NCBI GenBank assembly: GCA_963763775.1
Contig: CAVXPZ010000003.1
Location: forward strand, 1 to 64,000
DNA: 64,000 nt
Direction of reading: 5' to 3'
Source: an uncultured Chloroflexia bacterium
GTDB lineage: Bacteria; Chloroflexota; Limnocylindria; Limnocylindrales; CSP1-4
Positions 18,095 through 38,713 of the stretch are shown here, piece by piece. The stretch's first letter is position 1, and the number at the start of each line of letters is the position of its first letter. The notes beneath the pieces are model-generated. The model saw only the letters and a list, made by a program, of their open reading frames with translations. It was not told where the DNA came from and searched no databases. Position numbers and translations under genes: made by a program.

Positions 18095-18559
18095 GTGAGC
18101 CGCGAGACCGAGGACCTCAATCGACGCCTGCTGCGCGCCCGCGATGCGATGGACCGCGCGTACGCCGAGCCGCTGGACGTCCGCGCGGTCGCGTCGGTCG
18201 CCCACATCTCGCCGGCCCACTTCAGCCGATGCTTCCGGGCGGTGTTCGGGGAGACGCCGCACCGCTACCTGGTCCGTCGGCGTGTCGAGCGCGCGATGTT
18301 CCTGCTGCGCGAGACCGATCGGAGCGTCACCGACATCTGCTTCGACGTCGCCTTCACGAGTCTCGGGACCTTCAGCCGGACCTTCCGCGAGATCGTCGGC
18401 GAGACGCCGACCGGCTATCGCCGCGGCCACGGGCCGATCGTCGCGCCCCATTGTGTCCAGCTCGCGGCGATGCGGCCGCAGGTCGCGGCCGAGGAGGCGC
18501 CGCGATCGAGCAGTTTTGGAGAAGCGTCGGCGACGACGGCACCTAGGGTTGGGGCCTGA
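18095..18559 (+). CDS. AraC family regulator (short)
   Basis: RARDAMDRAYAEPLDV, FGETPHRYL..RR.ERA, SLGTFSRTF. Confidence 0.9.
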   Translation: MSRETEDLNRRLLRARDAMDRAYAEPLDVRAVASVAHISPAHFSRCFRAVFGETPHRYLVRRRVERAMFLLRETDRSVTDICFDVAFTSLGTFSRTFREIVGETPTGYRRGHGPIVAPHCVQLAAMRPQVAAEEAPRSSSFGEASATTAPRVGA

Positions 18560-18586
18560 CGACCCCAGCGCAAGGAGAACCCGCCG

Positions 18587-19018
18587 ATGATCACCAGGCT
18601 CAACGTCGCCACCATCTACGTCCTCGACAAGGAGGAGGCGCTCGACTTCTACGTCAACAAGCTCGGGCTCGAGAAGGGCAACGACGTCCGCCAGGGCGAC
18701 TACCGCTGGCTGACGATCAAGGTGCCGGGCGACGGGAACACCGAGGTCTCCCTCGAGCAGCCGGGACCGCCGCTCCACGACGAGGCCACCGCCGCGCAAC
18801 TGCGCGAGCTCATCACCAAGGGCGCCCTGGGCGGCCTCGTGTTCATCACCGACGATGCGCGCGCGCTCTACGACACGCTCCGCGAGCGCGGCGTCACCGA
18901 TTTCACCCAGGAGCCCACCGACCACTTCTACGGCACGGACATGGGCCTCCGGGATCCGTTCGGCAACCCGATCCGGATCCTCCAGCAGGGCAAGGCCGCC
19001 CAGAAGGCGACGGCCTGA
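18587..19018 (+). CDS. VOC/glyoxalase family protein
   Basis: EALDFYVNKLG, RWLT, FTQEPTDHFYGTDMGLRDPFGN. Confidence 0.9.
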   Translation: MITRLNVATIYVLDKEEALDFYVNKLGLEKGNDVRQGDYRWLTIKVPGDGNTEVSLEQPGPPLHDEATAAQLRELITKGALGGLVFITDDARALYDTLRERGVTDFTQEPTDHFYGTDMGLRDPFGNPIRILQQGKAAQKATA

Positions 19019-20657: not shown

Positions 20658-21362
20658 TCAGCGCGACGACAACACCGGGGACTCCGCGCCGAGGTTCCCG
20701 AGGACCATCGAGTAGCTGCTGAGGCCACGCGCCACGACGATCGGCACCGCGTGGATGGTCGTGCGGACCTGCTCGGCGGGATCGAGCGGCAGCTCACCGG
20801 TCAGCCAGGCGCGAGCGGCGGCGGCGTCCGCTGGATCCGCGAAGGACTGCCCGATCGTCGCGACCAGGAGGTCCGCTCGGTCGCGGTCGGACGTCGCCGA
20901 CGGCGTTCCGAGGATGTCCGAATCCACGTGGATCTCGCCGACGTGGCCCGCCGGATCCTCGGAGACGACCACGGTCGCGAGCACCGACGGCGTGGTCGCC
21001 GTGCAGACGATCGCCTCCATGCGCGGTCGGCCGGCCGGGGTCGCCGTGCCGGGGCGGCAACTGAAACCCGAGGTGCGAAGCTCGACGGAGAGTCCTTCGC
21101 CCGTCCGGAAGGCTGGAGCGGGGTCTGCCACCGGAGCCTTGGGCGCCCCGATCGCGGATCCGATGGCCAGGACGACGATCGCGACTGCCGCGGCCAGGGG
21201 CACTTCGGATCGGAGCCGGGAGTGGGCACCGACGGGCCCCGGCGCAGCGAGGATGTCGCCTGGCAACGGCTCGACGGCCAGGGAGCGCGCCGCGGACCCG
21301 AGGGCACGATCGAAGGCGTCCTGCATCGGGTCGGCCCCGGCCGGCCGCGTGGGAGCGCTCAA
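20658..21362 (-). CDS. Putative anti-sigma factor
   Basis: Coupled after an ECF sigma; one TM (LAAAVAIVVLAIG); Cys pair in the external part. Confidence 0.6.
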   Translation of the reverse strand: MSAPTRPAGADPMQDAFDRALGSAARSLAVEPLPGDILAAPGPVGAHSRLRSEVPLAAAVAIVVLAIGSAIGAPKAPVADPAPAFRTGEGLSVELRTSGFSCRPGTATPAGRPRMEAIVCTATTPSVLATVVVSEDPAGHVGEIHVDSDILGTPSATSDRDRADLLVATIGQSFADPADAAAARAWLTGELPLDPAEQVRTTIHAVPIVVARGLSSYSMVLGNLGAESPVLSSR

Positions 21363-21886
21363 CGCTCAGCCTCCTGCCAGGCATCGAGCAGTCGGGCCCT
21401 CGCCCGCGATGAGATCTTCCTGGCGTTGGCATGGCTCACGCCAAGGAGCTCGGCGACTTCGGCCAGAGAGTACCCGTAGCCGTGCTGCAGGATGACGACG
21501 GCGCGTTCCCGCGGCGCCAAGGCGTCGATCAGCTCGCGCAACTCGAGGCCCGAGGCTCGCGGTGCCGGTCGCTCCATACCGGGAAGTCCGTCGAGCAGTT
21601 CACGAAGTCGATGCCCTCGGCGTTTCACCCGGAAGCTTCGATGCACGCAGATCCGGGCGAGCCAGGCCTCCGCCGCGAGTGGATCGCGAAGCTGGCCGAC
21701 CCGGGCGTGAGCGATGAGATACGTGTCGTGGACGACATCCTCCGCGTGCGCGTGTCCGACGAGGGACGTCGCGATGCGCTGCAGCCGCGGGCGCGCGGCA
21801 GCGAAGACCGCGTCGAGGTCGTGGTCGTCATGGCGGACGACCGGGCCGATCCGGGGGACGAGGCGCTCAAGCTCTGTCACGGTCAC
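21359..21886 (-). CDS. ECF RNA polymerase sigma factor
   Basis: AEDVVHDTY, AWLARIC, LAPRERAVVIL..YGYSLAEVAELLG..RAR. Confidence 0.88.
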   Translation of the reverse strand: MTVTELERLVPRIGPVVRHDDHDLDAVFAAARPRLQRIATSLVGHAHAEDVVHDTYLIAHARVGQLRDPLAAEAWLARICVHRSFRVKRRGHRLRELLDGLPGMERPAPRASGLELRELIDALAPRERAVVILQHGYGYSLAEVAELLGVSHANARKISSRARARLLDAWQEAER

Positions 21887-22012
21887 ACACGATAGAGACT
21901 CGGGCGGCGCCGACTGTGACCCTGGCCGAAGATCCTGCGCGGGTGCGCGGGCTGTGCCACGACGGACAGTACAGCCTGCGGAAGCCGCCCCTGCAAGGGT
22001 GAGGAGGCTCGA

Positions 22013-22720
22013 TTAGTGCCGGTGCCGTCGAAGGTGGATCAGCGGGAGGGCCAGGGCGACGAACGTCATGACGAGATAGACGCCGACCGCCGCGAGCGGG
22101 ACCACGACGGCCAGGACGATGGCGACGACGTTGAGGACGATCAGGATCCACCGCTGCCGGACCTTGGCTTCCAACGTCTCGTCGGCGACGCCATCGACCA
22201 CGAGCGACCGCTCGCTCGCGATGTAGAACATGAGCAGACTCAGGGCCAGTGACGCCAGGAGCACGTTGACCCCATAGATCACGACCGCTGCCTCCACGTC
22301 CGGGCCCGACAGGTGGGTGACGAGCAGGTTGGTCGAGAACGGAAGGACGGCCACGAAGAGCAGCATCAGGAGGTCGATGCCGTACGCCAGCGTGTCGGCG
22401 TGCCGCATCAACTTCGTCATCCCAGCGTGGCTGACCCAGATCCCTCCGATGAACGCGAAGCTGATCAGGTAGCCGAGGAACTCCTGCCACTGTTCCGCGA
22501 GGGCCGGCAGTAGGCGACCGCCACTTGCCGGCACCGTCAATTCGAGGACGAGCAGCGTGATCGCGATGGCGAAGACGCCATCGGTGAACGCATTGAACCG
22601 GTCGAGAGGCAGGACATCCGCGGCCCTGGAAGACCCGCGACCCTTCAACGTTTGGCGGACCCCATGGTCGTGCGGCGCCGTCGCTTCGAGCGACGGATCC
22701 GATCGTTCATCCACCGCCAC
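22013..22720 (-). CDS. TMEM175 family potassium channel
   Basis: RFNAFTDGVFAIAITLLVLEL, SFAFIGGIWVSH, LPFST. Confidence 0.88.
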   Translation of the reverse strand: MAVDERSDPSLEATAPHDHGVRQTLKGRGSSRAADVLPLDRFNAFTDGVFAIAITLLVLELTVPASGGRLLPALAEQWQEFLGYLISFAFIGGIWVSHAGMTKLMRHADTLAYGIDLLMLLFVAVLPFSTNLLVTHLSGPDVEAAVVIYGVNVLLASLALSLLMFYIASERSLVVDGVADETLEAKVRQRWILIVLNVVAIVLAVVVPLAAVGVYLVMTFVALALPLIHLRRHRH

Positions 22721-22752
22721 TGATCCTCGTCATCGGGCGGCGACCGGATCTG

Positions 22753-23280
22753 TCACGTCGTCGGATGATCAGCTGCGTCGACCGGAGCCGAGTTCGACGC
22801 AGCGTCGATCTCAGCGACAGCGGCATCATCGAGCTCATGAGTCTCGGCTTGGCCGCCGAGGGAGGTGAGCTCGGCGAGGATCGCGGCGGCGCTGGTCTTG
22901 TCCGTCATCACCCCGACGGCGGCCTTGCCCCCTTGCAGCTCGCGACCGAGGCGCTCCCGATCATCCTTCGACGTGAACACGCTCCTGTGGTGAAGCGCGC
23001 CGAGGATCCCGCCGCCGATGACCCCGATCGCCAACCCGATCGGTGTGAGCATGGCCAGGATGATCCCGATCCCGGCGCCCGTCCCCGTGCTCCGAGGACC
23101 GAGCTTCTCGGTCTTGAGTCTGCCGTCTGCGTCGAGGACGAGGACTCCCAGCGCCTGGATCTGATGGGTATCGATCAGCTTTGCAGCGGCCTCCTGCTCC
23201 GCCCACAGGGTCAGCCCTTCAGCGGCAGCGTCCGCGGACGCCTCGTCGGCGAAGATCGCCAGGACCAGTTGTCGGAGCAT
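22753..23280 (-). CDS. DUF1269-like Gly-rich membrane-associated protein
   Basis: GVLVLDADGRLK, GAGIGIILAML.P.GLAIG..GG..GA, LGRELQGGKAAV. Confidence 0.7.
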   Translation of the reverse strand: MLRQLVLAIFADEASADAAAEGLTLWAEQEAAAKLIDTHQIQALGVLVLDADGRLKTEKLGPRSTGTGAGIGIILAMLTPIGLAIGVIGGGILGALHHRSVFTSKDDRERLGRELQGGKAAVGVMTDKTSAAAILAELTSLGGQAETHELDDAAVAEIDAASNSAPVDAADHPTT

Positions 23281-23379
23281 GATCGACTCCCTTGGGCGCT
23301 AGATCAGACCGTATCGCGCGTGGCGTAGCGGCCCGGCTTCGATGTCACGCCAGCATAGGCTCGTCAAGGGCACCGGCCG

Positions 23380-23398
23380 CATCCTCCTGGCCGGAAGA
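23380..23398 (-). promoter_or_regulatory. Cluster box 1 (TCTTCC-N5-GGAGGATG on the - strand)
   Basis: Lies 22 bp upstream of TATGCT (23357-23352), oriented toward gene 23280. Confidence 0.65.
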
Positions 23399-23429
23399 GG
23401 TCGATCAAGGCTGACCGTCGTTTCATCGA

Positions 23430-25586
23430 CTACACCTCATCGCCGCTACGGACCGGCGTCACGACCGGCACGGGCACAGGGGCATCCCCCAGGACCAGGA
23501 GCGCCGTCCGCCACGTTGTCGCGAATACGCCGATGAACGGCACGACGAGGAACATCCCGGCGATCCCCGCCAGGGCCGCACCCGCCGGGATCGCGAGCAG
23601 GACGATGGCCGGATGGATGTTGACCGCGCGCCCGTAGACCACCGGCGCCACGAAGTTGCCCTGGACCACGTTGAAGACGATGGTGTAGACGCCCATGATC
23701 GCGGCGTCCTGCGGCGTGCCGAGGGCGAGCGTCACGAAGAACGCCAGCAGCGTCGTCAGGATGCTGCCGATATACGGGATGAACCCGCCGAAGAACGACA
23801 GGACCGCCAGAGGCAGTGCGAGCGGGATCCCGAGCAGCGTCATGATCAGAAGCTGCGTCGTCGCCCCGAAGAGCGAGATCGCGCCGGTTCCGATCATGTA
23901 GCCGCCCAGGACCCCGACGGCCCGGCCTCCGGCCGCATCCACCTCGGGCCGGCGCCACTCGGCGAGGCGGGACGTCGCGAACGACCAGAACCTGGGGCCG
24001 TCGCGCAGGAAGTCGAACGTCAGCAGAACGCCGATGACACAGACGACTGCCAGTCCGATGGATCCGGCCACGACCGCCTGGGCCGTGTGAAGTAGGACGT
24101 CGGATGAGCTCGACACGATCGGCTGCAGCCAGGCGAGGACTTGGGGATTCGAGGCGACTGCCTGCCCGGCACCGATGCTGGCGGCTTGGACGATCGGCCC
24201 CATCTGGGTCGCCAGGCTGACGACGGTGAGGACGACGACGACCGTGGTGATGACGATCGATGCCACGGTCACGGTGCCAGCCGCGCTCGTCGGGCTCCAG
24301 CCCCTGGCCCGAAGCAGACGGTAGATCGGCAGGAGCGTCGCCGCGAGGATGATCGCGAGCGTCACCGGGATGAGGACGATCGGGACCTGGACCGCGAGGA
24401 GGACCGCTACGCCCAGGAACGCGAGCCCGACCAGGCATCGCCAGCTCCATTGCGCCAGGCGATCCAGCCACCGGGGCACGATCGAAGTCGACTCCCCATG
24501 TGCACCCGTGACGTCCATGCCGATGACGTCGATGAGGGAACCAGCGACGGCGTACCCGAACGCGACGACCGGGACGGCCAGGAACAGGCCGACGAACCCC
24601 GCCAGCGCCGCCCCGATCGGGAGGGCGATCAGCACGGCGGGCCGCGGCATCCGGACCGCCCCACGGAAGACCCTCGGGGCGACGACGGAGGTCTGGACGA
24701 CGTGAACCAGGATGACCCCGACGAAGATGGCGCCGGCGGCCGCAAGGCCACCTGACGCATAGGTCACGAGGAGCAGGACGGTCATCAGCAGGAGCCCGCC
24801 GAGATACGGGATGAAGCCGGCGAAGAAGGCGAAGACCGACAGGGCGAGAGCAGCGGGAACGCCGAGCACCGTCAGGAAGGCGAAGGTGGTCGCCGCGTCG
24901 ATGGTCGCCTGCGTCGCGGTCCCGCGAAGCCAGACCCCGACTCCGCTCAGTGCCTTGTCGCCGCTGGACATGATCACCTCACGCCGGCGATCGCCCGTCG
25001 CCTGGAGTGCCGATGTCCACGCCTTGTCGCCGTCCTGGAGGAGGAAGAAGGTCAGGATGCTCCCGAGGATCGTCACGGTGACGGCGGTCGCCAGCCAGGA
25101 CGCGACGCTCGCGAGGTGGCCGCCGATCCATGACTCGGCGTTCGATCGAGCCTGGCCAAGGGCGTCGTCCAGCTGACCGGCCTGGCCGCTCGCGTTCGCA
25201 TCCGCCTGGAGTCTGGTCACCCCCGACTGGATGGACTCGACGATCCCGGGGATGAGCGGCACGACGGCGACCACGAGGAGGATCACGATCATGCCGATCG
25301 CGATGATCGCCAGGAGGGTCACCGCGGCGGCCGTCTTCGTTCGGGACCAGCCCCGTCCGCGCAACCACCTCGCGACCGGCGCGAAGAAGACGGCGACGAT
25401 CAGCGCGAACAGGATCGAAGCGACCACAGTCCCAAGGATCACGGCGAGATCGGCGAGGACGACACCCAGTGCGAACACGACCAGCACGCGCCAGCCGATC
25501 GCGGCCGCGTTGCTCAGCCAGGTCGGGATGAGCGGCGCACGGGTCTCGGTATCGGCCTCTACCGGCTGGCTCGTCGCGCCGCCCAT
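23430..25586 (-). CDS. AI-2E family transporter with two fused AI-2E domains
   Basis: Two copies of WL...A..SWR.LV / FF.GFIPY.G / P.V.L.A.P.GAALAG..G.FL.VP. Confidence 0.88.
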   Translation of the reverse strand: MGGATSQPVEADTETRAPLIPTWLSNAAAIGWRVLVVFALGVVLADLAVILGTVVASILFALIVAVFFAPVARWLRGRGWSRTKTAAAVTLLAIIAIGMIVILLVVAVVPLIPGIVESIQSGVTRLQADANASGQAGQLDDALGQARSNAESWIGGHLASVASWLATAVTVTILGSILTFFLLQDGDKAWTSALQATGDRRREVIMSSGDKALSGVGVWLRGTATQATIDAATTFAFLTVLGVPAALALSVFAFFAGFIPYLGGLLLMTVLLLVTYASGGLAAAGAIFVGVILVHVVQTSVVAPRVFRGAVRMPRPAVLIALPIGAALAGFVGLFLAVPVVAFGYAVAGSLIDVIGMDVTGAHGESTSIVPRWLDRLAQWSWRCLVGLAFLGVAVLLAVQVPIVLIPVTLAIILAATLLPIYRLLRARGWSPTSAAGTVTVASIVITTVVVVLTVVSLATQMGPIVQAASIGAGQAVASNPQVLAWLQPIVSSSSDVLLHTAQAVVAGSIGLAVVCVIGVLLTFDFLRDGPRFWSFATSRLAEWRRPEVDAAGGRAVGVLGGYMIGTGAISLFGATTQLLIMTLLGIPLALPLAVLSFFGGFIPYIGSILTTLLAFFVTLALGTPQDAAIMGVYTIVFNVVQGNFVAPVVYGRAVNIHPAIVLLAIPAGAALAGIAGMFLVVPFIGVFATTWRTALLVLGDAPVPVPVVTPVRSGDEV

Positions 25587-26716
25587 CAGTGGGCAGCGGC
25601 CTTGAGCTCCGCAGTGGTCGGCAGCATCGACTTGCCCCGTCGCGCCAGCTTGAGCAGGATCCAGGCGAGCGGGATCGGCAGGAACCAGTAGTACAGCCGG
25701 TAGAGGAAGACGCCGGCTGTGATCGCGGCGGTGTATCCCTCGCCCGCGATGGTGGTGAAGGCCGAGATGAAGAGCAGTTCCGGGACCCCGGCGCCACCAG
25801 GCGAGAGCGGGATGATCGTGATGGCCATCACGAGGGCGTAGACGCCGAAGATGATGCCCGGGCTCAGGACGTCGGCTGGCACACCGCACATCCGGAGCGC
25901 GACGATGAGGACGATCGTCCAGACGAACTGGGAAGCGACCGACGTGCCGAGCGCCACCAGACCGCGCTGGCGGATGACGACACCCAGCTGGTCGCGGAAC
26001 CGATGGATCGCGCCGTCGACGTCGGGCGCGCCCTTGCGTCCGAGCCGCGCCATCAGCCATGACACCATCCGCTGCCCCGTCCGACCAAGCCAGGAGGCGA
26101 TCCGCTCCGAACGGACGATCGCGATGATGAGACAGACGGCGACCACGAAAACGACCGCGCTGATGATCGCGATCGTCCACGCCTTCCCTGAGTTGGGGCC
26201 TTCGGCCAGGTTGCCGGTGACTGCGATCGTGATGATCGCGAAGAGGGGCAGGAACAGGCGACTCAATTCGTGGACCACGCCGTAGAGGGCGATGCCCGAG
26301 GTGGCCGGGATGTTCGGGATGCCCCAGCCGCGCAAGACGACCCAAAGGACGCCCATGTTCCACGGGCCGAACGGGACGCTCGCGCCGATCCCGGACAGGA
26401 TCAGCCACGACGTCGGTCCACGGGGCACGGATAACCCGGGGATCAGCGCGCAGAAGACGAGGCCGCTGACGAGCCAGCCGGCGGCACCCAGGGCGGTGAT
26501 GACCACCATCTGCTGTGCTGACAGGGCCTGGAACGCGGCGAAGACCTCGCTGTAGTTCACGCCGGTCGCTGGCAGGATGATGACGAAGACGACGAAGAGG
26601 ACGGCGACGATCAGACCCGAGCGCATGAGCGCCGCACGGCGATTCGGCGGCGCGGCGGCGGACGCCGGGTCCGTCCCCCGGGTCGCGTCGGGCGTGGGCG
26701 TGTCGGGGCCACTCAT
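25586..26716 (-). CDS. Lysylphosphatidylglycerol-synthase TM-region (UPF0104/flippase-like) protein
   Basis: IPLSPGGAGVPEL, AGVFLYRLYYWFLPIPL; multi-TM. Confidence 0.8.
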   Translation of the reverse strand: MSGPDTPTPDATRGTDPASAAAPPNRRAALMRSGLIVAVLFVVFVIILPATGVNYSEVFAAFQALSAQQMVVITALGAAGWLVSGLVFCALIPGLSVPRGPTSWLILSGIGASVPFGPWNMGVLWVVLRGWGIPNIPATSGIALYGVVHELSRLFLPLFAIITIAVTGNLAEGPNSGKAWTIAIISAVVFVVAVCLIIAIVRSERIASWLGRTGQRMVSWLMARLGRKGAPDVDGAIHRFRDQLGVVIRQRGLVALGTSVASQFVWTIVLIVALRMCGVPADVLSPGIIFGVYALVMAITIIPLSPGGAGVPELLFISAFTTIAGEGYTAAITAGVFLYRLYYWFLPIPLAWILLKLARRGKSMLPTTAELKAAAH

Positions 26717-26916
26717 CCGGTCCGCTCCGGCGTCGTCACCGACGTCGTCTCCGAGTGCGGATCAAGATCGCTGGTCCAGACGGACATGCAACTCCTCGCA
26801 CCGACGCGCTCGTTACCTGTTCCGATCCGAGAAGCATATTCCCCCGAGCGAGATGGACGTCCGTTAAACGCCGATGCAGACGGGCTCCATTATCGAGGCG
26901 CTCCCGACGGCGGGAA

Positions 26917-26935
26917 CATCCTCCCCTTCGGAGGA
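26917..26935 (-). promoter_or_regulatory. Cluster box 2 (TCCTCCGAAGGGGAGGATG on the - strand)
   Basis: Lies 22 bp upstream of GATAAT (26894-26889). Confidence 0.75.
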
Positions 26936-26956
26936 AGCGCCCGACCTCGCGCGCCG

Positions 26957-29287
26957 TCAGGCCCTGGACGGTGACCTACTCGGCTGCCGGGACTCCTCGG
27001 CCGGCCAGAACCGCTCGAGGAGTCCGGCGTCGACGGCAAGGTCGACGGCGTCGCTGCGGGTCGCCGCGCCCAGCTTCTGGTAGATCGCAAGCGATTGCGA
27101 CTTGATCGTCGTCTCCTTGACGCCGAGGCGCTGGCCGATCTCCTTGAACGAGAGGTAGTACGGGAGAAATGACAGGACACGGAGCTCGGCGACCGTGAGG
27201 CTCGTCGCGCCCCCGCCGCGCACGGGCGCCCGGGCGGCCAGGACCTCCTGGAGGGAGTCCGCCTCGGCTGGGAGGACACCGAGGTCGGGGCGATCGCGGA
27301 TCACGTCGTTCGCATGGGCGACAAGGGCGCGTGCGCCGGTGGGATCGTCGATCGCGACATGGGCCCTCGCGAACGCGAGAAGGAGCTGGACCGCTCCGGC
27401 CGGGGCAGCTGCAGTCAGGAGCGGTCGAAGGCCTGTCGCGCGAGCGAGCTCGCGACGCGCACCGCCGATATCGCCGCGATGGATCATCAGCTTGATGCGG
27501 ACCACGCGAGACGGGACACTCGAGAGGTACCCGTCGACGTGTCGAACCGGGTCGATCGTATCGCTCTCCGCGATGTGAGCAGCCGCGGCATCCCAGGCCC
27601 CCTGTTGGGCGGCCACGAGAGCGCGGTGTCCGAGCACGCAATACAAGCGCGCGAGGTGGCTCGACGCCCTGGCCGCGACGACTGCGTCGGCAAGGGCTGC
27701 GTCTGCGCCCACCACATCGCCGAACGTGAGGCGCGCGAAGGCCAGCTGCCATAGCGCGAAGTCCCGCCACGATCCATGCTCCCCTTCGAGCTCGACCGCT
27801 CTCGTGGCGTTCGCCAGCGCGTCTTCCGCCCCACGGCGAACAGTCGCGGCTCGGAGCATCGCCCGCCCGGACTCGAACGACGCGGTGCCGTCGTGCGGCC
27901 GACCCGCGAACGCTCCTCGCTCGGCGACATCGGCAAGTCGTATCGTCCCTGCCACGTCGCCCGCGGCGATCTCCTCCCAGGCTGCGAGCACCGCGAGCCA
28001 GGGGTGGGCCTCCAGAACGTCCGGACCCAAACGACGGGCCCATGCTCGGATCGTCGTGCGGCGGCCGGACCAGTGAAGCTGACCGAAGCCGTTGCCGACC
28101 AGCGTGGCGACGAGGTCCGAGTCCTCTGCCGCGAAGGCGTGATCGACGGCGTGCTCGATGGCGTCGTTCGCCTGGTACCAAGCGGCAGCACGCCTGTGGA
28201 GTGTGGCCAACATCTGAGGTTCGCGGATCGCGAGTTCCCGCTGGAGGAAGTCACGAAGGAGGGTGTGGTAGCGGTACGACCCGCCGTATTCGTCGATCAG
28301 CAGGGTCGAGCGTGAGAGGTGCCGCAGGATCTCGGTCGACCCGTGCCGATCCGCCACGACATCGCACAGCGGCGCGGGCAGATCGTCGAGGATCGAGGTG
28401 CGAGTCAGGAACGTGACCTCGGCCGTGGATCGGCGATCGAGCACCTCGGATCGTAGGTAGTCGTCGATGCGATGGTCGGGACCGGCGTCGCTCCGATCGG
28501 GTGCTGTCCGAGACGTCCCGGCTCCGAGGATCGCGAGCGCCAGCAGGGCGGGCCAGCCCTCGGTCTCCCGTGTCAGGCGCGTGGCCGTATCGGCCGGCAC
28601 GCGCAGCCCGAGTTCGCGTCCCAGCCCGACGGCCTCGCGCTTGTCCATCGCCAGATCCGTCGGACCGATCTCGAGCAATGAGCCGGCCGCTCGCCAGCGA
28701 GCAAACGGGAGGCGCATCCGAGCGCGCCCTGCGATCGCCACCTGCGACCCTTCGGGCGCGTGCTCGACGAACTCCGCGAGGATGTCGAGGCACGCCCGTG
28801 ATGTGATCCGGTGTGCATCGTCGATGGCGAGCTGGACGCGCTCCGTGGGTCTGGACATCACTGCCAGCAATCGACCGACAACGGTCCGGTGCGACACCGT
28901 GTCCGCCGCGATCGCGCCGAGGAGCTCCGGACCGACCGACACGCAACGATCGATCGCGGCCGCGAGATCGGTCAGGAACACGACCGGGTCGCTGTCGGTG
29001 TCGTCGGCCGTCAGCCAGGCGACCGCCCCGGAGTGCTCTGTCGCCCACTGGACAAGGAGACTCGATTTGCCGTAGCCGGGAGGCGCGACGATCCAGATGA
29101 CCGGTCGATCCGGGGACGACCGGAGTTGGCGCAACAGCCTGGTCCGGCGCAGTGTCCCTACGTGCCGCCGCGGCACGACAAGCCTTGCGTCGCGGAGAGG
29201 ATCGGTCAGACCGGTCGCGCTTTCGCCATTTCCGAGATCTTGAAGCTCGATCGCTTCGATCTCGACGGGAGAGGCGGAAGGGGGCAT
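26957..29287 (-). CDS. MalT-like ATP-dependent LuxR family transcriptional activator
   Basis: APPGYGKSSLL, VAWLTAD..D.DP, IDDAH, TEGWPA, YRYHTLLRDFL, C-terminal LTVAELRVL..L...LSFKEIG.RL.V...TIKSQ...IY.KLG. Confidence 0.92.
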   Translation of the reverse strand: MPPSASPVEIEAIELQDLGNGESATGLTDPLRDARLVVPRRHVGTLRRTRLLRQLRSSPDRPVIWIVAPPGYGKSSLLVQWATEHSGAVAWLTADDTDSDPVVFLTDLAAAIDRCVSVGPELLGAIAADTVSHRTVVGRLLAVMSRPTERVQLAIDDAHRITSRACLDILAEFVEHAPEGSQVAIAGRARMRLPFARWRAAGSLLEIGPTDLAMDKREAVGLGRELGLRVPADTATRLTRETEGWPALLALAILGAGTSRTAPDRSDAGPDHRIDDYLRSEVLDRRSTAEVTFLTRTSILDDLPAPLCDVVADRHGSTEILRHLSRSTLLIDEYGGSYRYHTLLRDFLQRELAIREPQMLATLHRRAAAWYQANDAIEHAVDHAFAAEDSDLVATLVGNGFGQLHWSGRRTTIRAWARRLGPDVLEAHPWLAVLAAWEEIAAGDVAGTIRLADVAERGAFAGRPHDGTASFESGRAMLRAATVRRGAEDALANATRAVELEGEHGSWRDFALWQLAFARLTFGDVVGADAALADAVVAARASSHLARLYCVLGHRALVAAQQGAWDAAAAHIAESDTIDPVRHVDGYLSSVPSRVVRIKLMIHRGDIGGARRELARATGLRPLLTAAAPAGAVQLLLAFARAHVAIDDPTGARALVAHANDVIRDRPDLGVLPAEADSLQEVLAARAPVRGGGATSLTVAELRVLSFLPYYLSFKEIGQRLGVKETTIKSQSLAIYQKLGAATRSDAVDLAVDAGLLERFWPAEESRQPSRSPSRA

Positions 29288-29433
29288 GCGGTCCTACCAG
29301 CTGGCGGCGCGGTCCAGCGACCGAGCCAGACGGTCAAGAGGGGCATCGTAGTGGAAGAGTCAGCCGCGGTCCAATCGCGCCGCGTCATCGTTCACTTCGT
29401 CGCGCGAGGGGCTCGCGCTGCGGGGAGCCTCCG

Positions 29434-29452
29434 TCCTCCGACGGGGAGGATG
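29434..29452 (+). promoter_or_regulatory. Cluster box 3 (TCCTCCGACGGGGAGGATG)
   Basis: Identical 19-mer to box 4; lies 20 bp upstream of TAGCGT (29473). Confidence 0.75.
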
Positions 29453-29698
29453 CGGGGCGCTGATCGGCAGCCTAGCGTGACAGTGTCCCGATGGACAGCG
29501 GTGATGTCGACGTGATCAGGCCCTTCGTCGCAAACGGGGTTGGCGGGCTCACGTCCAGTCGGCCATCGCGCCCGCGTCGATTCGGCGGGGCCGTCACGTG
29601 AGGATCTACGAAGCGCCGCGCCACCGATCCCTGACGAAACGCGCGGTCTCGCGACCGACGCTCGTCCATCGAAGCCACGCCGACCAAGAGGATCACCG

Positions 29699-30201
29699 AT
29701 GTCCAAGAGACGTTCGCCTCCTCGCCCCCGCGCTCGTCCTGACGCTCGCCGTCGCCGCATGTGCGGGTTCCTCGTCGCCGACTCCGGGCACGCCGACAGC
29801 CCAGGCTACGTCGCAGACGTCGGCGGCTCCGATCGTTTCGGAAGCTCCGACCGCGTCGGGCGCGGACGCGATCTGCACGGACGCAGCGCGTTTCCGCGCC
29901 TCGATGACGGCGCTCACCGATCTCAAGCTCGCCACCGTCGGCGTGAGCGGCGTGACGGCGGCACTTACCGAGGTGCAGTCGGCCGCTCAGGCCCTCGCCG
30001 TGTCGGGGCACGATCTCGTCGGCCAGCCGGTCAGCGATCTGCTGACCTCCGTCCAGGCACTCCAGACCACGCTGACCGGACTCGGCGATCAGCCGAGCCT
30101 CGGCGCAGGCCTTGTCGCGGTGAAGGCGGCGATCGAGCAGATCAAGACGGCAGCGTCCGGTGTCGAGTCCGGCGCTCGCGACCACTTGCCCAGCCAGCTA
30201 G
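29699..30201 (+). CDS. Helical lipoprotein, frameshifts near both ends
   Basis: GAGGA RBS and ATG 29699; LAVAAC lipobox; restored C-terminus ALATTCPAS* pairs with the Cys in DAICTD. Confidence 0.6.
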
Positions 30202-30285
30202 CGGCGCGCCGTCAGACTCCTGCCCGGAGCGTCGCCGCGGCACACGAGCGGCTGGGATGAGGCTGTCTCCTGACAGCGAGGGGGG

Positions 30286-30795
30286 TCACGACGCCCTCCC
30301 TGGGGCGTCGGCCGCCAGCGGCGTGTTCGGCCGATGGCGGAGGTGCGGCTCGTCTGCTTCCCCAAGCTCCCACGTGCCAGTCGGCGCTATGGCCATCCGC
30401 CGACCGTAGAGCGCGCCGATCCGCCCCGCGCTCAGGCCGTGGAGGAAGACGGACAAGAGCACGGTCCAGGTGACCACATGGACGAGCGTGAGACTGGCTG
30501 GATGAGTCGGACCCATCTGGTCGAAGGCAACAAGCAGGAAGACCACCGATGCGAGACCGCGCGGCCCGAACCAGCCGATGAGCGCGACCGTGTCCGTGCG
30601 AAGTGGCGAGCTGACCATCGACAGCGCCACCGGGCCCATCCGAACGATGGTGAGGCTCAGGACGGCGTAGACCAGCACTGCCGGGTCGAGGCCTGCCGCG
30701 AGCACCGGACCAACGAAGCCGATACCGAAGACAAGCCAGACCAGGTAGGACCCCGTCACCCCGATCCAGTCGGCGAATTCGACGGATGGCTCGGC
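30286..30795 (-). pseudogene. C-terminal half of a NhaP-type cation:proton antiporter
   Basis: YAVLSLTIVRMGPV, IGWFGPRGLASVVF, TVLLSVFLHGLSA; the N-terminal half is missing. Confidence 0.8.
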
Positions 30796-30799
30796 CGCT

Positions 30800-31108
30800 G
30801 GGGCATCTTGAGCTGCTGCAGCTTGGCCAGCTCGTCGGCGGTGGAGACACCGGCGACGGCCGCGTTGGCGGCGTCGGCCTGGCCATCATCTGGACGTCAC
30901 CGGGCGTGACCTTGGGTCGCGCGATGATGTAGATCAGGCAGCCGAGGAACGGCAGGATGAAGATCAGGAAGATCCAGCCGGCCTTCGCGCCGCCGTGGAT
31001 GTCCGTCCGGTGGAAGATGTCCGAGAAGATCGCGATGAAGATCCAGATCGCGAGGATGAGGAAGAACACCTCGATCGACCACAGAAGGAAATCGCCAAGG
31101 CTACTCAT
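30800..31108 (-). CDS. PLDc_N + SHOCT small membrane protein, frameshifted and truncated in SHOCT
   Basis: DIFHRTDIHGGAKAGW...ILPFLGCLIYIIARP, then STADELAKLQQLK. Confidence 0.75.
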
Positions 31109-31269
31109 CGGTCGTAGCTCCTAGTTGCGTGTGGGGTACGTCACGTCGGCTGTTGGTCTGGGTTGAACCGCGCTCATGCGATGGAGGCGACCCCGGGTCG
31201 TTCGACACGATCCGCAGGTCGCCTCCATCGCTCGCTCTCCTCCCGGACGGGGGTCCCGCCGGGGTGACG

Positions 31270-31884
31270 TCAGCCGGCGGCCTTGTCTCCTCCGGCCTTG
31301 GCGGCCTGCTTGACCGCGGCGGCGTCCTCGTCGCTGATCGGAGCGGACTTGACCACCTTGGCGTCCGGGATCGTCGCCTCCACGGCGTCGACCGCTGTCA
31401 CGGACACCAGGGCGACGATGCCCGACGTGCCCGGGGTGATGACGCCGGCGAGGTCGTCGGCGACTTCGCTCTTCATGAGCACGTTGCCCGCCTTGCCGAC
31501 GGCCGCACCCGCGATGCCGACGCCGACTGCCCCGGCGATGATGGTCGGCGGGAAGATCAAGCCGATGACCGCGCCGCCGACGGCGCCCCACAGGAACCCG
31601 TTGCGGGTCTTGTGGTCAGTCATCTTCTGGATGTGGATCTTGCCCTGGTCGTCCGCGTTGGCGACCAGGACGCCGTCGATGTCGAGCGCTCGGTTGACCT
31701 CGGCGTCGATCAACGCCTCGTAGGCCGCCTTGGCCGAATCCATGTCGGCGAATTGGGCCACGATGAGGGCCTGATTGCCCTGGACCGCGATCCCTGCCAC
31801 AGCGTCCACACCGAGGTCGTCACCGACTGCGGCCACGGCCACGCCGACCGGCTGATCCGTCGTGTTCTGCGTCTCGTCACTCAT
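31270..31884 (-). CDS. DUF1269 family protein
   Basis: IDGVLV..DDQGKIH..K.TDH.TR.G..WGAVGGAVIGLIFPP, ITPGTSGIVALV. Confidence 0.8.
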   Translation of the reverse strand: MSDETQNTTDQPVGVAVAAVGDDLGVDAVAGIAVQGNQALIVAQFADMDSAKAAYEALIDAEVNRALDIDGVLVANADDQGKIHIQKMTDHKTRNGFLWGAVGGAVIGLIFPPTIIAGAVGVGIAGAAVGKAGNVLMKSEVADDLAGVITPGTSGIVALVSVTAVDAVEATIPDAKVVKSAPISDEDAAAVKQAAKAGGDKAAG

Positions 31885-31943
31885 CTGAGGAATCTCCCTT
31901 CGTTGTCATCGGTTGGTCCAGCGATCCTGGATGCATTGACTTC

Positions 31944-32946
31944 TCAGCTCACGCCAGCCGCGACCTCCTCGGCAGCGAGGACGGACGCGAGCGCCTCGTC
32001 GGCCGCCTCCTGCTCGATCATGTCGGCCGCAACGAGCGCGTCGACCGCCTCCTGAGCGGCCTCCCGCTCGATGAGGTCCGCCGCGATGAGCGCGCGAACG
32101 GCGCGAAGCGCCGCTGCCGCCTCGATCTCGTCGGCCGCCGCGACCGCTTCCTCGGCCTCTTCCGTCGCCGTCTCCTCGACATCGAGGGACATCCGCACGA
32201 CGTTCTCGGCTTCCTCCTTTGCCGCCTCCTCGATGAGCGTCGGCAGCGAACAGCGTGTCGATGACGTCCTCTGCTGCCGCATCCTCGACTGCCAGCGCTG
32301 CGGCGACCACATCGGCCGCCTCGGCGATGGCGGCGTCCTCGATCAACTCCGCCTCGACGAGGGTCTGGGCGATCTCCATGGCTGCGGCCAGCTTGACCTC
32401 CTCGGCCGCTTCGATCGCGTCCTCCGCCTCCATCTTCACGCGCAGCTCGTCACCCACGATCGCGAGGGCATCGGGCGAGATCATCGCCTGCATCAGGGTC
32501 CGGCCGCCGGCGTCCACGATCGCATCGCGCAGGTTCGCCGCCCAGTGGTGCTCGATGACGAGGATCGCCGCGGCGCTGCCCGCGGGGATCGAGTCGGCGA
32601 GCTCCTGCATCCGGTCCACGGACAGCCCGGCGTCGCGCTCGGCGACGGCGAGCGCTCCGAGTTCGGCTCCCTCGACCATGCCCTCGACGCCACCGGCGTG
32701 AAGCCCGAGTAGCCCGCCGGCGATGGATCCGAGACGCATCCGCTCGTTCTCGGACAGGTCGGTCAGGTGCATCGAGTTCTCGATGCTTCCCTGCCGGTTC
32801 TTCTGGACGAAGATCACGTCGACGAGGCGGATGACGCCGCGCTTCCGCGCCCGGCGCAGTTCGGCCATGATCCGGCCCGTTGCCTCGAACTTGTCGAAGC
32901 CGACCACGAACACCTGGATCGGGCCGGTCACATGCTTCTCTGCCAT
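31944..32946 (-). CDS. DUF6325/DUF1269-like protein with long acidic Ala/Glu repeat tail, frameshift near 32240
   Basis: GPIQVFVVGF, GVIRLVDVIFV.K, IPAGSAAAILVIEHHWA..LRDAI..AGG; tail repeats LxAADLIExxAAxEA. Confidence 0.75.
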
Positions 32947-33024
32947 GTCCACTATCTCCTTCGACCCTGATCCCAGATGTCCGGCGCCGGTCGCGCAGCC
33001 GGACGGGTGCTGCCCGCCGCGAAC

Positions 33025-33615
33025 TCAGAGTGGGATCGCGGATCCGTCATGTGCCGCCGCGTTCGCGGCCGCCTTGATGTCCCCGGCCGTCTCTTCGTCG
33101 ACCGGGACCGTCTTGACCTGCTCGGCCGCCGGCATCTTCTGCGCGACGGCGTCGGCATCCATCGCCGAGACCAGCGCGAGGATCCCGGAAGTGCCCGCCG
33201 TGATGACGCCGGCGAGTTCCTTTTCGACCTCGACCCGGTGATGGAGGTTGCGCGCCTTGCCGGCCGCCGCCCCGGCAACGCCGAGCGCGACGGCTCCGGC
33301 GACGATGGTGGCGGGCAGGAAGACCGCCGCGACGACACCACCGACGATGCCCCACTTCAGGCCCGTCCGCGTGCTGTGGTCGGTCATCTTCTGGACGTGG
33401 AGTCGGCCCTTCTCGTCTGCTTTGACCACAAGGACACCGTCGACCTCGAGGAACCCCGCGACCTCGGCGTCGATGAGATCGTCATACGCGCTCATCGCCA
33501 GGGTGGGGTCCGCGAAGCGGGCGACGACGAGCGCGTGGGGGCCCTGCGCAACGACTGCGTCCTCGGCCATGACACCGCCCGTCGATGTCGTCTCGGTCGT
33601 GTCTGGTCCGGTCAC
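33025..33615 (-). CDS. DUF1269 family protein (close paralog of 31270-31884)
   Basis: VDGVLVVKADEKGRLHVQKMTDHSTRTGLKWG...GVITAGTSGILALVS; GAGGA RBS and GTG 33615. Confidence 0.8.
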   Translation of the reverse strand: MTGPDTTETTSTGGVMAEDAVVAQGPHALVVARFADPTLAMSAYDDLIDAEVAGFLEVDGVLVVKADEKGRLHVQKMTDHSTRTGLKWGIVGGVVAAVFLPATIVAGAVALGVAGAAAGKARNLHHRVEVEKELAGVITAGTSGILALVSAMDADAVAQKMPAAEQVKTVPVDEETAGDIKAAANAAAHDGSAIPL

Positions 33616-33762
33616 ATCGATTCCTCGGCTCCTCGCGGTCGACGCAGACCGTTCTCGTGCGGAAGGCATGCGTTGCTGCGCTTGCGACGACCGTCCAGGC
33701 ACGTCGACCACTTGCGCGGCCACCCGGACCCTCGCACCGTAGGCCGGGTCCAGGGCCGGCCA

Positions 33763-33781
33763 CATCCTCCCCGTCGGAGGA
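33763..33781 (-). promoter_or_regulatory. Cluster box 4 (TCCTCCGACGGGGAGGATG on the - strand)
   Basis: Lies 21 bp upstream of TACGGT (33741-33736). Confidence 0.75.
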
Positions 33782-33842
33782 AGGCCCGTGTCCGCAGCAC
33801 GACGTTGCGACGGGCGCCGATCACCGCTGTTCGTGTTCGACC

Positions 33843-33861
33843 TCCTCCGAATAGGGGGAAG
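33843..33861 (+). promoter_or_regulatory. Cluster box 5 (TCCTCCGAATAGGGGGAAG)
   Basis: Lies 21 bp upstream of CACCAT (33883), oriented toward DUF2252. Confidence 0.6.
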
Positions 33862-33933
33862 TCGGGCGGGGAGTCGCGGATCCACCATCGTCGTGCGGGC
33901 TGTGCCGTGTGATGACAGCGACGGAGAACGGCG

Positions 33934-35386
33934 ATGACACCAGCAGTGAAGATCGGCTCGGCAGACGCGACCAGTCAGGCCGACCCCAAGCCACCCCGCA
34001 TCCGACGCCGACACATCGACGGCGACACGGCCGCGGCACACCGCGCATCAGGCCGGGCAGGCCGCACTGAGGTGCCACTCAGCGCCCATGGCGAGTGGGC
34101 CGTGCCGGCAGATCGACCGGACCCGGTCGCACTGCTGATCGAGCAGGGCGAGACGCGGGTCGCGGATCTCGTGCCCATCCGGTACGGGCGGATGCTGGTC
34201 TCGCCATTCACGTTCCTGCGCGGCGCCGCACTGGTCATGGCGGCCGATCTGGCGCGTCTGCCCTCGAGCGGCATCTACGTCCAATCCTGCGGCGACGCCC
34301 ACCTGTCGAACTTCGGTGTGTTCGCGACGCCGGAGCGGCGCTTGAGCTTCGACGTCAACGACTTCGACGAGACGCATCCCGCGCCCTTCGAATGGGATGT
34401 CAAGCGCCTCGCAGCCAGCCTCGTGGTCGCAGGACACGGCGCTGGCTATCAGCGAGCCGCGGTCCGCACCATCACCCGCTCGGCGGTCGGCGCCTACCGG
34501 ACCGAGATGCGGAGTCTGGCCTCGATGTCGTTCCTGGATGCGTGGTACACGCGGATCGACGTCACGGCGATGCTCGCGGAGAGTCGAGCAGCGAGGATCA
34601 GCCCGGACGAAGAAGATCGCACACCGGGCCGTCGAGAAGGCCTCGACGCGGACGAACCTCGGCACGCTGAGCAGTCTCGCCGAGCACACCGACGCCGGCT
34701 GGCGGATCCGGGCAAATCCTCCGCTCATCGTCCGATACGATGCCACGCCCGAAAGCGACGCCGCCCTCCGAGACGGATTGACGGCGTACCGAAGGTCGCT
34801 CGGCCGGGACATGCAGCCGATCATGGACGCGTACAAGTTCGCCGATTACGCGCGCAAGGTCGTTGGCGTCGGCTCCATCGGGACCGAGGCGTTCGTGGTC
34901 CTCAACATCGGACCGCGCAACGACGACGCGCTGTTCCTCCAGGTGAAGGAAGCCCAGGCATCGGTGCTGGAGCGCTATACCGAGCAGAGCACCATCAAGG
35001 AGCAGGGCGAGCGGGTGGTCGCGGGTCAGCGGCTGATGCAGGCTGCAAGCGACCGGTTCCTCGGCTGGCTACGGATCGACCGCCTCGGGCGTCCGTACGA
35101 CTTCTACGTCCGCCAGCTCCGCGACTGGAAAGCCTCCTACGAAGTGGAGAGCAACCAGGAGCAGCGGCTGGCGACGTATGCGCGCTACTGCGGGATCGCC
35201 CTTGCCCGCGCGCATGCCCGCTCCGGCTCGGCGTCGGCCATCGCTGGCTACCTCGGCAAGACCGATGACTTCGACCGCGCGGTCGAGCGATTCGCGGTCG
35301 CCTATGCCGAGCAGAACGGACGCGACTACCAGGCCCTTCTCCAGGCCGAGACCGACGGCCGGATCAAGGTCCAGCGTGGCGTCTGA
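33934..35386 (+). CDS. DUF2252 family protein (kinase-like fold), frameshift near 34600
   Basis: LVPIRYGRMLVSPFTFLRGAA, CGDAHLSNFG, FDVNDFDE, KVVGVGSIG, LFLQVKEA, FYVRQLRDWK, LARAHARSG. Confidence 0.92.
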
Positions 35387-35399
35387 TCCGAGTCGATCG

Positions 35400-35912
35400 A
35401 TGCGGAGGCCCGCACGCCTCGTGCCGTTGCGACGCTCGATCGACCGCTTCATGTCGGATCCGGCATCCCCCCGGAACGCCGCCCGACTGATGATCGGCGC
35501 GACCGTCGTCATCGTCCTGGTCGGCGGACTCGTCGTCTGGCTATTCGACAGTCAGGAGTTCCCGGACTACGGCGGGGCCCTGTGGTACACGCTGCAGACG
35601 GTGACCACGGTCGGCTACGGCGACAAGGTGCCCACGAGCCTGGTCGGACGCCTCACCGGCTCGTTCGTGATGGTCGTGTCGGTCGCGCTGCTCGCCATCG
35701 TCACCGCCTTGATCACGTCGACCTTCGTGGAGGCCGCGCAGCGGCGGCGCCACGCGCAGGAGCAGGATCCAGCCCAAGCGACCGATGCACGGCTCGACGA
35801 GATCTCATCTCGCCTGATGGCCATGGAGCGGTCGCTGGAGGAGCTCGTCGCCGGCCGAGGCACGCCAGGCGAAGCCGATCCACCTGCAGACCGGCAAGCA
35901 ACGAAGACTTGA
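35400..35912 (+). CDS. Two-TM potassium channel (Ion_trans_2, KcsA-like)
   Basis: ALWYTLQTVTTVGYGDKVP selectivity filter; start could be 35451. Confidence 0.88.
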   Translation: MRRPARLVPLRRSIDRFMSDPASPRNAARLMIGATVVIVLVGGLVVWLFDSQEFPDYGGALWYTLQTVTTVGYGDKVPTSLVGRLTGSFVMVVSVALLAIVTALITSTFVEAAQRRRHAQEQDPAQATDARLDEISSRLMAMERSLEELVAGRGTPGEADPPADRQATKT

Positions 35913-35971
35913 TCTACCAGGATCGGCACGCCGACCCAGACACGCCGTCACCCCAGCGGGAGCAAGACCAG

Positions 35972-38155: not shown

Positions 38156-38364
38156 GACGCGACCTCGCGGCCCGGGACGTGAGCCACCCGCTGCTCATCG
38201 CCTGTGATCGACGTCGTCGATGGTCTGGGCAGCTCCTCGAGCGCCGCGTCGAGGTCGTAGCCGAGTGTGCGCGTGCGACACCCGGCGCCACCGTGGCGAT
38301 CCGGCCGAATCTGACCACCAGACCCAGCGTTCCACGCCCCCCGACAACCGCGACGGACCAAGGC

Positions 38365-38462
38365 GCGGGTGGTCGAGGGCGAGTCTCCTCGGAGCCGCAA
38401 CTCGACGATGAGGTAGGTTGGTCGGGGCGACAGAGCCTTCCTACTGGCTGAGAAGCGCATGA
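38365..38462 (+). repeat. Degenerate direct repeat of 41875-41945: recombinase-like stub, tRNA-Pro 3' end (antisense), tail
   Basis: TCGGAGCCGCA(A/G)CTCGACGATGAGGTAGG..TGGTCGGGGCGA is shared by both sites; followed by WLRSA* overlapping ATG 38459. Confidence 0.75.
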
Positions 38463-38713
38463 CGAGACGGCCGTGCCGCCCCGCCGAGCGCGCCACCGAT
38501 CGCGAGGTCGGCGTGGTGGCCGCGGTGCTGGTCGCCGGGTCGGAGAAGGCCGCCGCTCACCGCCTGGGGCTGTCGCACTCGACGGTGAAGCACCACCTCG
38601 CGAACGCGCGGACCAAGGTGGGCGCCGAGACGACAGCGCAGCTCGTGTGGATCCTGGCGGAGCGACTGCCAGAGCCTGAGGACGAGGCGTCGGAACGCCA
38701 GCGGCCTGAGTAG
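38459..38713 (+). CDS. Small LuxR-like HTH protein, element-associated
   Basis: TDREVGVVAAV..GSEKAAAHRLGLSHSTVKHHLANARTKVG. Confidence 0.7.
   Translation: MTRRPCRPAERATDREVGVVAAVLVAGSEKAAAHRLGLSHSTVKHHLANARTKVGAETTAQLVWILAERLPEPEDEASERQRPE

Follow-up and report, generated by a model that had tools for sequence, protein, structure and literature searches.

Which protein reads the palindromic box that recurs five times in front of largely uncharacterised genes at one locus of an uncultured Chloroflexia bacterium, and do these genes form a single regulon? The locus lies in a stretch of 64,000 nt of contig CAVXPZ010000003.1 (assembly GCA_963763775.1; G+C approximately 69 %), here called the window. 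A sequence-only reading had proposed that the box is the binding site of the MalT-like protein encoded at 26957-29287, and that it unites the surrounding cluster into one regulon. This proposal is supported by phylogenetic footprinting around the regulator gene, by the lack of a rival regulator recurring beside the boxes and by a homologous system in Actinoplanes, the binding itself being deduced from these comparisons. Taken together, the 19-bp element TCCTCC-GAnnG-GGAGGA-TG is likely to be the operator of this MalT-like LAL regulator. The five boxes were all found where they had been described and are listed here with their predicted -10 hexamers; gaps are counted from the end of the box to the hexamer.

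23380-23398, minus strand: box 1, TCTTCCGGCCAGGAGGATG, one mismatch in the 12 palindrome positions, upstream of the DUF1269-a and TMEM175-like genes; -10 hexamer TATGCT at 23352-23357 (minus strand), gap 22 nt
26917-26935, minus strand: box 2, TCCTCCGAAGGGGAGGATG, palindrome exact, starting 22 nt past the regulator stop codon; -10 hexamer GATAAT at 26889-26894 (minus strand), gap 22 nt
29434-29452, plus strand: box 3, TCCTCCGACGGGGAGGATG, an exact copy, directed at the lipoprotein gene from within the divergent region; -10 hexamer TAGCGT at 29473-29478 (plus strand), gap 20 nt, the same hexamer also in orthologues
33763-33781, minus strand: box 4, TCCTCCGACGGGGAGGATG, identical to box 3, exact, facing the DUF1269 operon; -10 hexamer TACGGT at 33736-33741 (minus strand), gap 21 nt, the same hexamer also in orthologues
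33843-33861, plus strand: box 5, TCCTCCGAATAGGGGGAAG, one mismatch and without the TG tail, facing the DUF2252 gene; -10 hexamer CACCAT at 33883-33888 (plus strand), gap 21 nt

Box searches covered the 64-kb window and related loci of up to approximately 22 kb each. When the 12-base palindrome TCCTCC-N5-GGAGGA was searched in the window with at most one mismatch, the five boxes were the only matches, against an expectation of 0.50, and none of 100 shuffled sequences reached five; the confinement of the box to the cluster therefore holds at this threshold, with no further copy in the rest of the 64 kb. Once two mismatches are allowed, the palindrome alone is at chance level in the window (8 matches vs 6.09 expected, with 27/100 shuffles reaching 8), and the signal is therefore carried by the exact and near-exact copies. 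The complete 19-mer with at most three mismatches gave six matches against 0.54 expected, again unmatched by any of 100 shuffles. The additional match at 35510-35528(-) is probably due to chance, as it has the wrong orientation and overlaps the start of an open reading frame (ORF), and the sole extra near-match under a T/G-degenerate pattern, 17421-17437, is a chance hit at the junction of two ORFs. A consensus scan of 22500-36000 for canonical -35/-10 promoters returned no match, compared to 0.6 in shuffles, in agreement with the earlier statement that the boxed promoters have no evident -35. A terminator scan of the same interval gave one terminator-like site, located within a gene, while an Rfam scan of 21000-39000 assigned no family and produced two sub-threshold matches only (E=0.14 and E=0.57).

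The weaker sixth candidate of the sequence-only reading, placed at 31238-31254 and delimited here as 31236-31254(-) (ACCCCCGTCCGGGAGGAGA), had to be given up as a functional box. It is degenerate, lacks a TANNNT hexamer at 20-22 nt, and in an alignment of the regions upstream of PLDc_N from eight orthologous loci the box-like stretch is not kept in the closest of these (L001-L004). A true box upstream of PLDc_N occurs only in L011 and L018 of these eight, in another intergenic context. The same intergenic region, between the DUF1269-b and PLDc_N genes, holds a strong hairpin (GATGGAGGCGACC...GGTCGCCTCCATC, 31183-31230(-)), which is kept in L001-L004 with changes on both arms, the true box promoter standing in its place in L011 and L018; the hairpin may serve as a terminator or attenuator. 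Furthermore, a CCGAC(G/C)TGACGTCG-like stretch lies at approximately 31125-31145(-), preceding the ribosome-binding site of PLDc_N by about 25 nt, and is also present in L001-L005, L011 and L018, whatever promoter precedes it.

An alignment of 20 regulator homologues was used to scan genomes, one for each species, and yielded 72 related loci. Eighteen of them (L001-L018) carry orthologues of the regulator at 44-88 % identity and come from 17 metagenome-assembled genomes (MAGs) labelled Chloroflexia and one labelled Actinomycetes, while the remaining 54 loci with distant LAL paralogues, 960 kb in total, served as controls. ORFs in the related loci were called crudely as the longest ORF with high GC3, so that their start codons are approximate. 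At most one mismatch allowed, the orthologous loci hold 56 boxes, with at least one box in 17 of the 18, compared to 12 matches, one of them exact, in all control loci. The boxes keep close to the regulator gene: one lies within 200 nt after it in 17/18 loci and one within 400 nt before it in 15/18, whereas the relaxed box pattern has a background rate of 0.067 per 600 nt. Individual promoters can be followed across genomes as well. DUF1269 orthologues in L004, L009 and L014 carry TCATCCGTC(A/C)(A/G)GGAGGATG boxes, in front of DUF2252, the promoters in L004, L005 and L014 share with box 5 its weak 3' end (GGAGGAGG/GGAGGACG) and a CCAC(T/C)AT hexamer, and the holin-phosphodiesterase orthologues in L011 and L018 have an upstream box of their own.

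The spacing between box and -10, described earlier as fixed, was confirmed in the window with gaps of 22, 22, 20, 21 and 21 nt, and was further assessed in a pooled set of 60 boxes (five from the window and 55 from the loci). Within gaps of 0-23 nt, TANNNT starts solely at 20, 21 and 22 nt, with 12, 12 and 4 cases, respectively, adding up to 28/60 boxes, and NANNNT is found at these gaps in 44/60. The claim that the asymmetric end of the box faces the gene was examined in an orientation-free test of 61 palindromes, 53 of which have TG on one side only. A TANNNT hexamer at the right distance is present 27 times on the TG side and never on the opposite side, so the asymmetry of the box is real and points towards the gene. 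The half-sites vary without compensation, as seen in TCATCC..GGAGGA, TCGTCC..GGAGGA and TCCTCC..GGCAGGA, which argues for recognition by a protein and against an RNA stem. We also noted a second small inverted repeat, TTCCCG-N4-CGGGA(A/G), at 26899-26916(-) between box 2 and its -10; along with an uncommon -10 of the form GAAAT(G/A/T), it is kept in most orthologous promoters that follow the stop codon of the regulator, even though the downstream genes differ, and may be a second operator.

The candidate binder is encoded in the middle of the cluster.

26957-29287, minus strand: MalT-like LAL/STAND regulator of 776 aa with a P-loop NTPase, a putative helical sensor region and a C-terminal LuxR/GerE helix-turn-helix (HTH) domain
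29345-29374, minus strand: promoter-like element of the regulator gene, TTGGAC-N18-TACGAT, approximately 55 nt upstream of the start codon and not at box spacing

Its C-terminal HTH is recognised by Pfam PF00196 GerE (residues 696-751, 26.6 bits against a cut-off of 23.5), while the AAA_22 and nSTAND matches to the NTPase are weak and under their cut-offs; PF17874 TPR_MalT, precomputed for many 50-90 % identical homologues, gave no match to the window protein at E<=0.01. BLASTP aligns the N-terminal 418 aa to E. coli MalT with 28 % identity (E=8e-32), the aligned part covering the Walker A region (PPGYGKSS here, PAGYGKTT in MalT), and the HTH is 44 % identical to that of MalT over 55 aa (TTIKSQ..YQKLG vs TTIKTH..YQKLG). 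The sole PDB relative is E. coli MalT (8BOB, E=3.4e-30), and more than 100 homologues share 50-96 % identity with the regulator. In an alignment of 11 orthologous upstream regions, TTGGAC-N18-TA(C/G)GAT is kept in the window and most of the orthologues, and probably serves as a promoter of the regulator gene that does not depend on the box. This separate conserved element suggests that the regulator is expressed independently of the box and that control is exerted through activation of the protein.

The sequence-only reading had presented the regulon as hidden. In the sense of unprecedented this is not borne out, as a counterpart was published by Droste et al. for Actinoplanes sp. SE50/110 (PMC7567727), the sole relevant study returned by a limited literature search on the G-variant box, the MalT motif, the large genomic region regulated by maltose (MRLGR) and DUF1269/DUF2252. 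According to that report from 2020, the MalT-like protein ACSP50_3915 activates 40 of the 51 MRLGR genes, as concluded from deletion and overexpression transcriptomes, while maltose-metabolism genes are described as unaffected (PMC7567727). A MEME motif TCATCC-5nt-GGATGA was described at 17 transcription start sites, overlapping the -35, with 34.4 +/- 1.0 nt between its 3' end and the start site, and the authors link it to the E. coli/Klebsiella MalT box GGGGA(T/G)GAGG (PMC7567727). The region contains SHOCT, three DUF1269, AI-2E, MFS and many membrane proteins, and relatives carry DUF2252 and ppk2 (PMC7567727, including Table S3).

In both systems a MalT-like LuxR regulator with a TPR domain, putative in the window protein, is encoded within its cluster, many promoters per cluster carry a 6-5-6 inverted repeat TC(A/C)TCC-N5-GGA(T/G)GA, which overlaps the -35 there and is predicted to do so here, and the start-site distance of 34.4 +/- 1 nt there compares to 34-37 nt predicted here from the -10. 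The gene content agrees at the family level, as far as the published description goes, with several DUF1269, AI-2E, SHOCT and MFS genes and with DUF2252 and PPK2 in relatives, and neither cluster holds genes of a maltose-use regulon. The systems differ in the central base of the hexamer, which is G here and T there, and in the TG tail and strong asymmetry of the boxes described here. They also differ in host, MAGs labelled Chloroflexia as opposed to Micromonosporaceae, and in size, approximately 14 genes and five boxes compared to 51 genes and 17 start sites; furthermore, the window cluster has no glucosidase, amylase or arginine deiminase genes. The likeness was drawn from box and gene families, and it sets genetics in Actinoplanes beside sequence comparison in the window. 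On this basis, the window cluster is the putative Chloroflexia counterpart of the Actinoplanes MalT regulon, with a G-variant box.

The relation to E. coli MalT itself is more distant. The domain plan of STAND NTPase, helical sensor (putative in the window protein) and LuxR HTH is common to both proteins, and so are the core hexamer GGA(T/G)GA of the E. coli and Klebsiella MalT box and, as predicted for the window, the overlap of the site with the -35. E. coli MalT is longer, with 901 aa compared to 776 aa, and the targets here are not mal genes: no mal-family gene was found by Pfam behind the five boxes or in the 18 related loci. In E. coli, MalT boxes are arranged as direct repeats. At malPp the hexamers TCATCC, TCCTCC and GGATGA are spaced differently, whereas the element in the window is a tight 6-5-6 inverted repeat. 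Actinomycete LAL regulators, e.g. the activators of antibiotic clusters, are large P-loop and LuxR proteins that are encoded inside the cluster they activate. The present system resembles them in this general description; unlike theirs, the window cluster is not biosynthetic and its box is of the MalT type. The promoter-proximal half GGGGAGGATG matches nine of ten positions of the MalT box as quoted in PMC7567727.

From these data the following mechanism can be proposed. The regulator would be made from its own conserved promoter-like element and be switched on by a ligand together with ATP. Two HTH domains would then bind the inverted GGAGGA hexamers, of which the promoter-proximal half is the better conserved. 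As a TANNNT -10 follows 22-24 nt after the end of the 17-bp palindrome, the bound protein would fill the -35 position and recruit RNA polymerase to promoters without a -35 of their own, in the manner of class II activation. Given this distance between palindrome and -10, the start site is therefore predicted 34-37 nt past the 3' end of the palindrome. That the boxes are promoter-associated protein-binding sites is very likely, the LAL protein as their predicted binder is likely, and activation as the effect of the regulator is probable, with slightly less confidence. Five operons would respond: DUF1269-a with the TMEM175-like channel (box 1), the LPG-synthase-like protein with the tandem AI-2E transporter (box 2), the lipoprotein (box 3), three DUF1269 genes and possibly PLDc_N-SHOCT (box 4), and DUF2252 possibly with the holin-phosphodiesterase fusion (box 5). 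Gene families in the window were assigned by Pfam.

22753-23280, minus strand: DUF1269-a, first gene behind box 1 (PF06897, E=6.3e-07)
22013-22720, minus strand: TMEM175-like K+ channel homologue (PF06736, E=5.8e-24), following DUF1269-a after 33 nt and probably sharing its operon
25586-26716, minus strand: LPG_synthase_TM-like membrane protein, first long ORF behind box 2 (PF03706, E=2e-07, under the curated cut-off)
23430-25586, minus strand: tandem AI-2E family transporter (PF01594, E=1.3e-73, two stretches), its ATG overlapping the stop codon of the preceding gene
29699-30260, plus strand: small lipoprotein-like gene behind box 3, lipobox LAVAAC, no Pfam family, apparent frameshifts near the start and at the 3' end
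33025-33723, minus strand: DUF1269-type gene d behind box 4 (PF06897), start uncertain
31906-32952, minus strand: DUF1269-type gene c behind box 4 (PF06897), 3' part frameshifted
31270-31884, minus strand: DUF1269-type gene b behind box 4 (PF06897)
about 30800-31108, minus strand: small membrane protein PLDc_N(-SHOCT) (PF13396), with a frameshift in the window; it may close the box 4 operon
33934-35386, plus strand: DUF2252 gene behind box 5 (PF10009), split by a frameshift near 34560
35582-38155, plus strand: fusion of Holin_4_2 and type I phosphodiesterase (Pfam), possibly co-transcribed with DUF2252

Homologues of these proteins were counted by tblastn against L001-L018. The DUF1269 proteins b, c and d recur in 15/18 loci each with up to 97 % identity, followed by the TMEM175-like protein and the lipoprotein (12/18 each), DUF1269-a and DUF2252 (9/18 each), PLDc_N (8/18), AI-2E (7/18), the holin-phosphodiesterase fusion (6/18) and the LPG_synthase_TM-like protein (2/18). 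Among the first ORFs behind boxes in the related loci DUF1269 is the commonest, next to DUF2252, MFS, PPK2, DUF6264-like, PLDc_N-SHOCT, the holin-phosphodiesterase fusion, a P-type ATPase and small proteins without a Pfam family. Extra neighbours in the six loci scanned for them comprise Na+/H+ exchangers, P-type ATPases and one CHAD protein; by locus, PPK2 is added to the cluster in L002 and L004, CHAD in L009 (5564-6604), a Na+/H+ exchanger in L004 and L014, and a P-type ATPase in L004, L010 and L017. In L009, genes for a replication-relaxation protein and for a phage-type integrase (16441-18753) lie approximately 2 kb past the last box-driven gene, a context that fits horizontal mobility of the module, an idea raised for the Actinoplanes region in the published account (PMC7567727).

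T-form boxes are found beside more distant LAL genes in the Actinomycetota loci L024-26, L040, L042, L043, L057 and L060. In two Chloroflexia loci with more divergent regulators (44-51 % identity, KTH recognition helix), L013 and L015, the regulator stands between T-form or mixed boxes (TCATCC..GGATGA), at 9747 and 12720 and at 9802 and 12653, respectively, and DUF1269 genes are lacking. These loci look like a sister system with other targets, namely a CMD-family protein and a P-type ATPase.

Several observations weigh against the assignment of the boxes to the LAL regulator and of the cluster to one regulon. One orthologous locus, L012, holds the cluster genes yet no box at up to one mismatch; 16 of the 60 pooled boxes are without even NANNNT at gaps of 20-22 nt, and the promoter that directly follows the regulator gene shows a peculiar -10 of the GAAAT type, which reads GAAAT(G/A/T) in the orthologues. 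Helix and box do not always agree: GGAGGA boxes prevail among loci with a KSQ helix, the KS group being essentially one clade, yet L060 (KSQ) has GGATGA and the KTH loci L010 and L015 keep the GGAGGATG proximal half. A recognition code in which a KS or KT helix selects G or T as the central base was thus rejected as a suggestive trend only, broken by L060, L010 and L015. For Actinoplanes, electrophoretic mobility shift assays are absent from the main text of PMC7567727, where binding is likewise deduced. Finally, the regulon genes contain at least five apparent single-base frameshifts, at 29699-29710, ~30170, ~30885, ~32250 and ~34560. Lipoprotein translations were compared with L002, L004 and L014 and DUF2252 frames with L004; the frameshifts affect the lipoprotein (start and 3' end), PLDc_N-SHOCT, DUF1269-like c and DUF2252. 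PF10009 positions 1-155 fall in ORF 33934-35268 and positions 137-392 in ORF 34397-35386. The orthologues in related MAGs are intact, PLDc_N+SHOCT for instance with 121-127 aa. Tentatively, assembly or long-read errors are a more likely cause than decay.

The window is dense in signalling genes.

6786-9701, plus strand: second, unrelated LAL regulator, 971 aa
10570-11889, plus strand: adenylate/guanylate cyclase
12461-13234, plus strand: Crp-type regulator
17409-17960, minus strand: ECF sigma factor
21359-21886, minus strand: ECF sigma factor at the cluster edge
42144-44639, plus strand: PAS-GGDEF-EAL protein
53655-54998, minus strand: GGDEF protein

In tblastn searches of the 18 orthologous loci, neither the second LAL regulator nor the ECF sigma factor at 21359-21886 has a homologue (0/18 each), and the ECF sigma factor at 17409-17960 has one in a single locus. 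Among 67 further neighbouring ORFs in six of these loci (103 ORFs called), no other recurring regulator was found. With no rival regulator recurring and the LAL gene kept together with the boxes, the LAL protein is the sole conserved DNA-binding candidate. This bears directly on the strongest alternative, in which a different regulator encoded elsewhere binds the box and the LAL gene is a mere conserved regulon member or neighbour. The alternative gains some ground from the position of the regulator's own promoter-like element outside the box spacing and from the missing clean covariation between recognition-helix type and box type. It is nevertheless unlikely, as the box abuts the LAL gene in 17/18 (downstream) and 15/18 (upstream) loci despite differing downstream genes (MFS, PPK2, DUF6264-like, LPG-synthase-like), no other regulator is conserved nearby, and the hexamer equals the MalT core GGA(T/G)GA. 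In addition, the motif-bearing genes of Actinoplanes are reported to depend genetically on malT (PMC7567727).

Far less probable still is that the element represents the -35 part of an ECF sigma promoter, e.g. of the sigma factor at 21359-21886. Two ECF genes lie nearby, at 17409-17960 and 21359-21886, and the promoters are without a housekeeping -35, both of which would suit such an arrangement, but the 0/18 and 1/18 counts given above for the two factors in box-bearing loci speak against it. Dimeric HTH proteins, and not sigma region 4, furthermore typically recognise inverted repeats such as this one of 17 bp, the 22-24 nt from GGAGGA to the -10 exceed a -35/-10 spacer, and the hexamers downstream are of the housekeeping type, TANNNT. 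That the palindrome acts as an RNA hairpin (an anti-SD/SD-like stem, SD denoting Shine-Dalgarno) or is a dispersed repeat of the repetitive extragenic palindrome (REP) kind without regulatory role deserves hardly any credence. TCCTCC and GGAGGA can indeed make a 6-bp stem and GGAGGA resembles a Shine-Dalgarno sequence, but half-site changes are uncompensated, the start-codon distance varies from ~70 to 200 nt at a fixed -10 distance, the orientation towards the -10 holds without exception (27 to 0), no Rfam family was assigned, and the flanks differ among copies, so that it is not a longer mobile repeat.

With the LAL regulator as the likely owner of the box, the genes under its putative control can be considered together. 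The presence of PPK2, CHAD and cation transport genes beside boxes hints at an ion or polyphosphate theme, and because channels, pumps, PPK2 and CHAD genes recur in relatives, we tentatively suggest, at low confidence, a role in keeping the membrane, ion or polyphosphate balance when cells are stressed or grow slowly. A broader reading, possible if rather doubtful, is that the LAL regulator, the GGA(T/G)GA box and a core of DUF1269, DUF2252, AI-2E, SHOCT, PPK2 and ion-transport genes represent one ancient module of Actinomycetota and Chloroflexota, either shared or exchanged, whose cue would be the membrane, ion or energy (polyphosphate) state and not maltose.

While no new regulatory principle is revealed here, the analysis provides an operator-regulator pair that is ready for testing for DUF1269, DUF2252, PLDc_N-SHOCT and AI-2E-type transporters, all of them widespread and of unknown function, in a source lineage known from metagenomes only. 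It would also add a second phylum, in which the box differs by one base, to the range of the Actinoplanes MalT regulon, and such a spread across phyla helps to define the cue and the targets of a 'MalT' system that is not concerned with maltose. If the reading as one ancient module were true, it would amount to a regulon for stress or dormancy that is widespread yet unrecognised in soil Terrabacteria, and MalT-family proteins outside the enterobacteria would work as HTH dimers on a palindrome.

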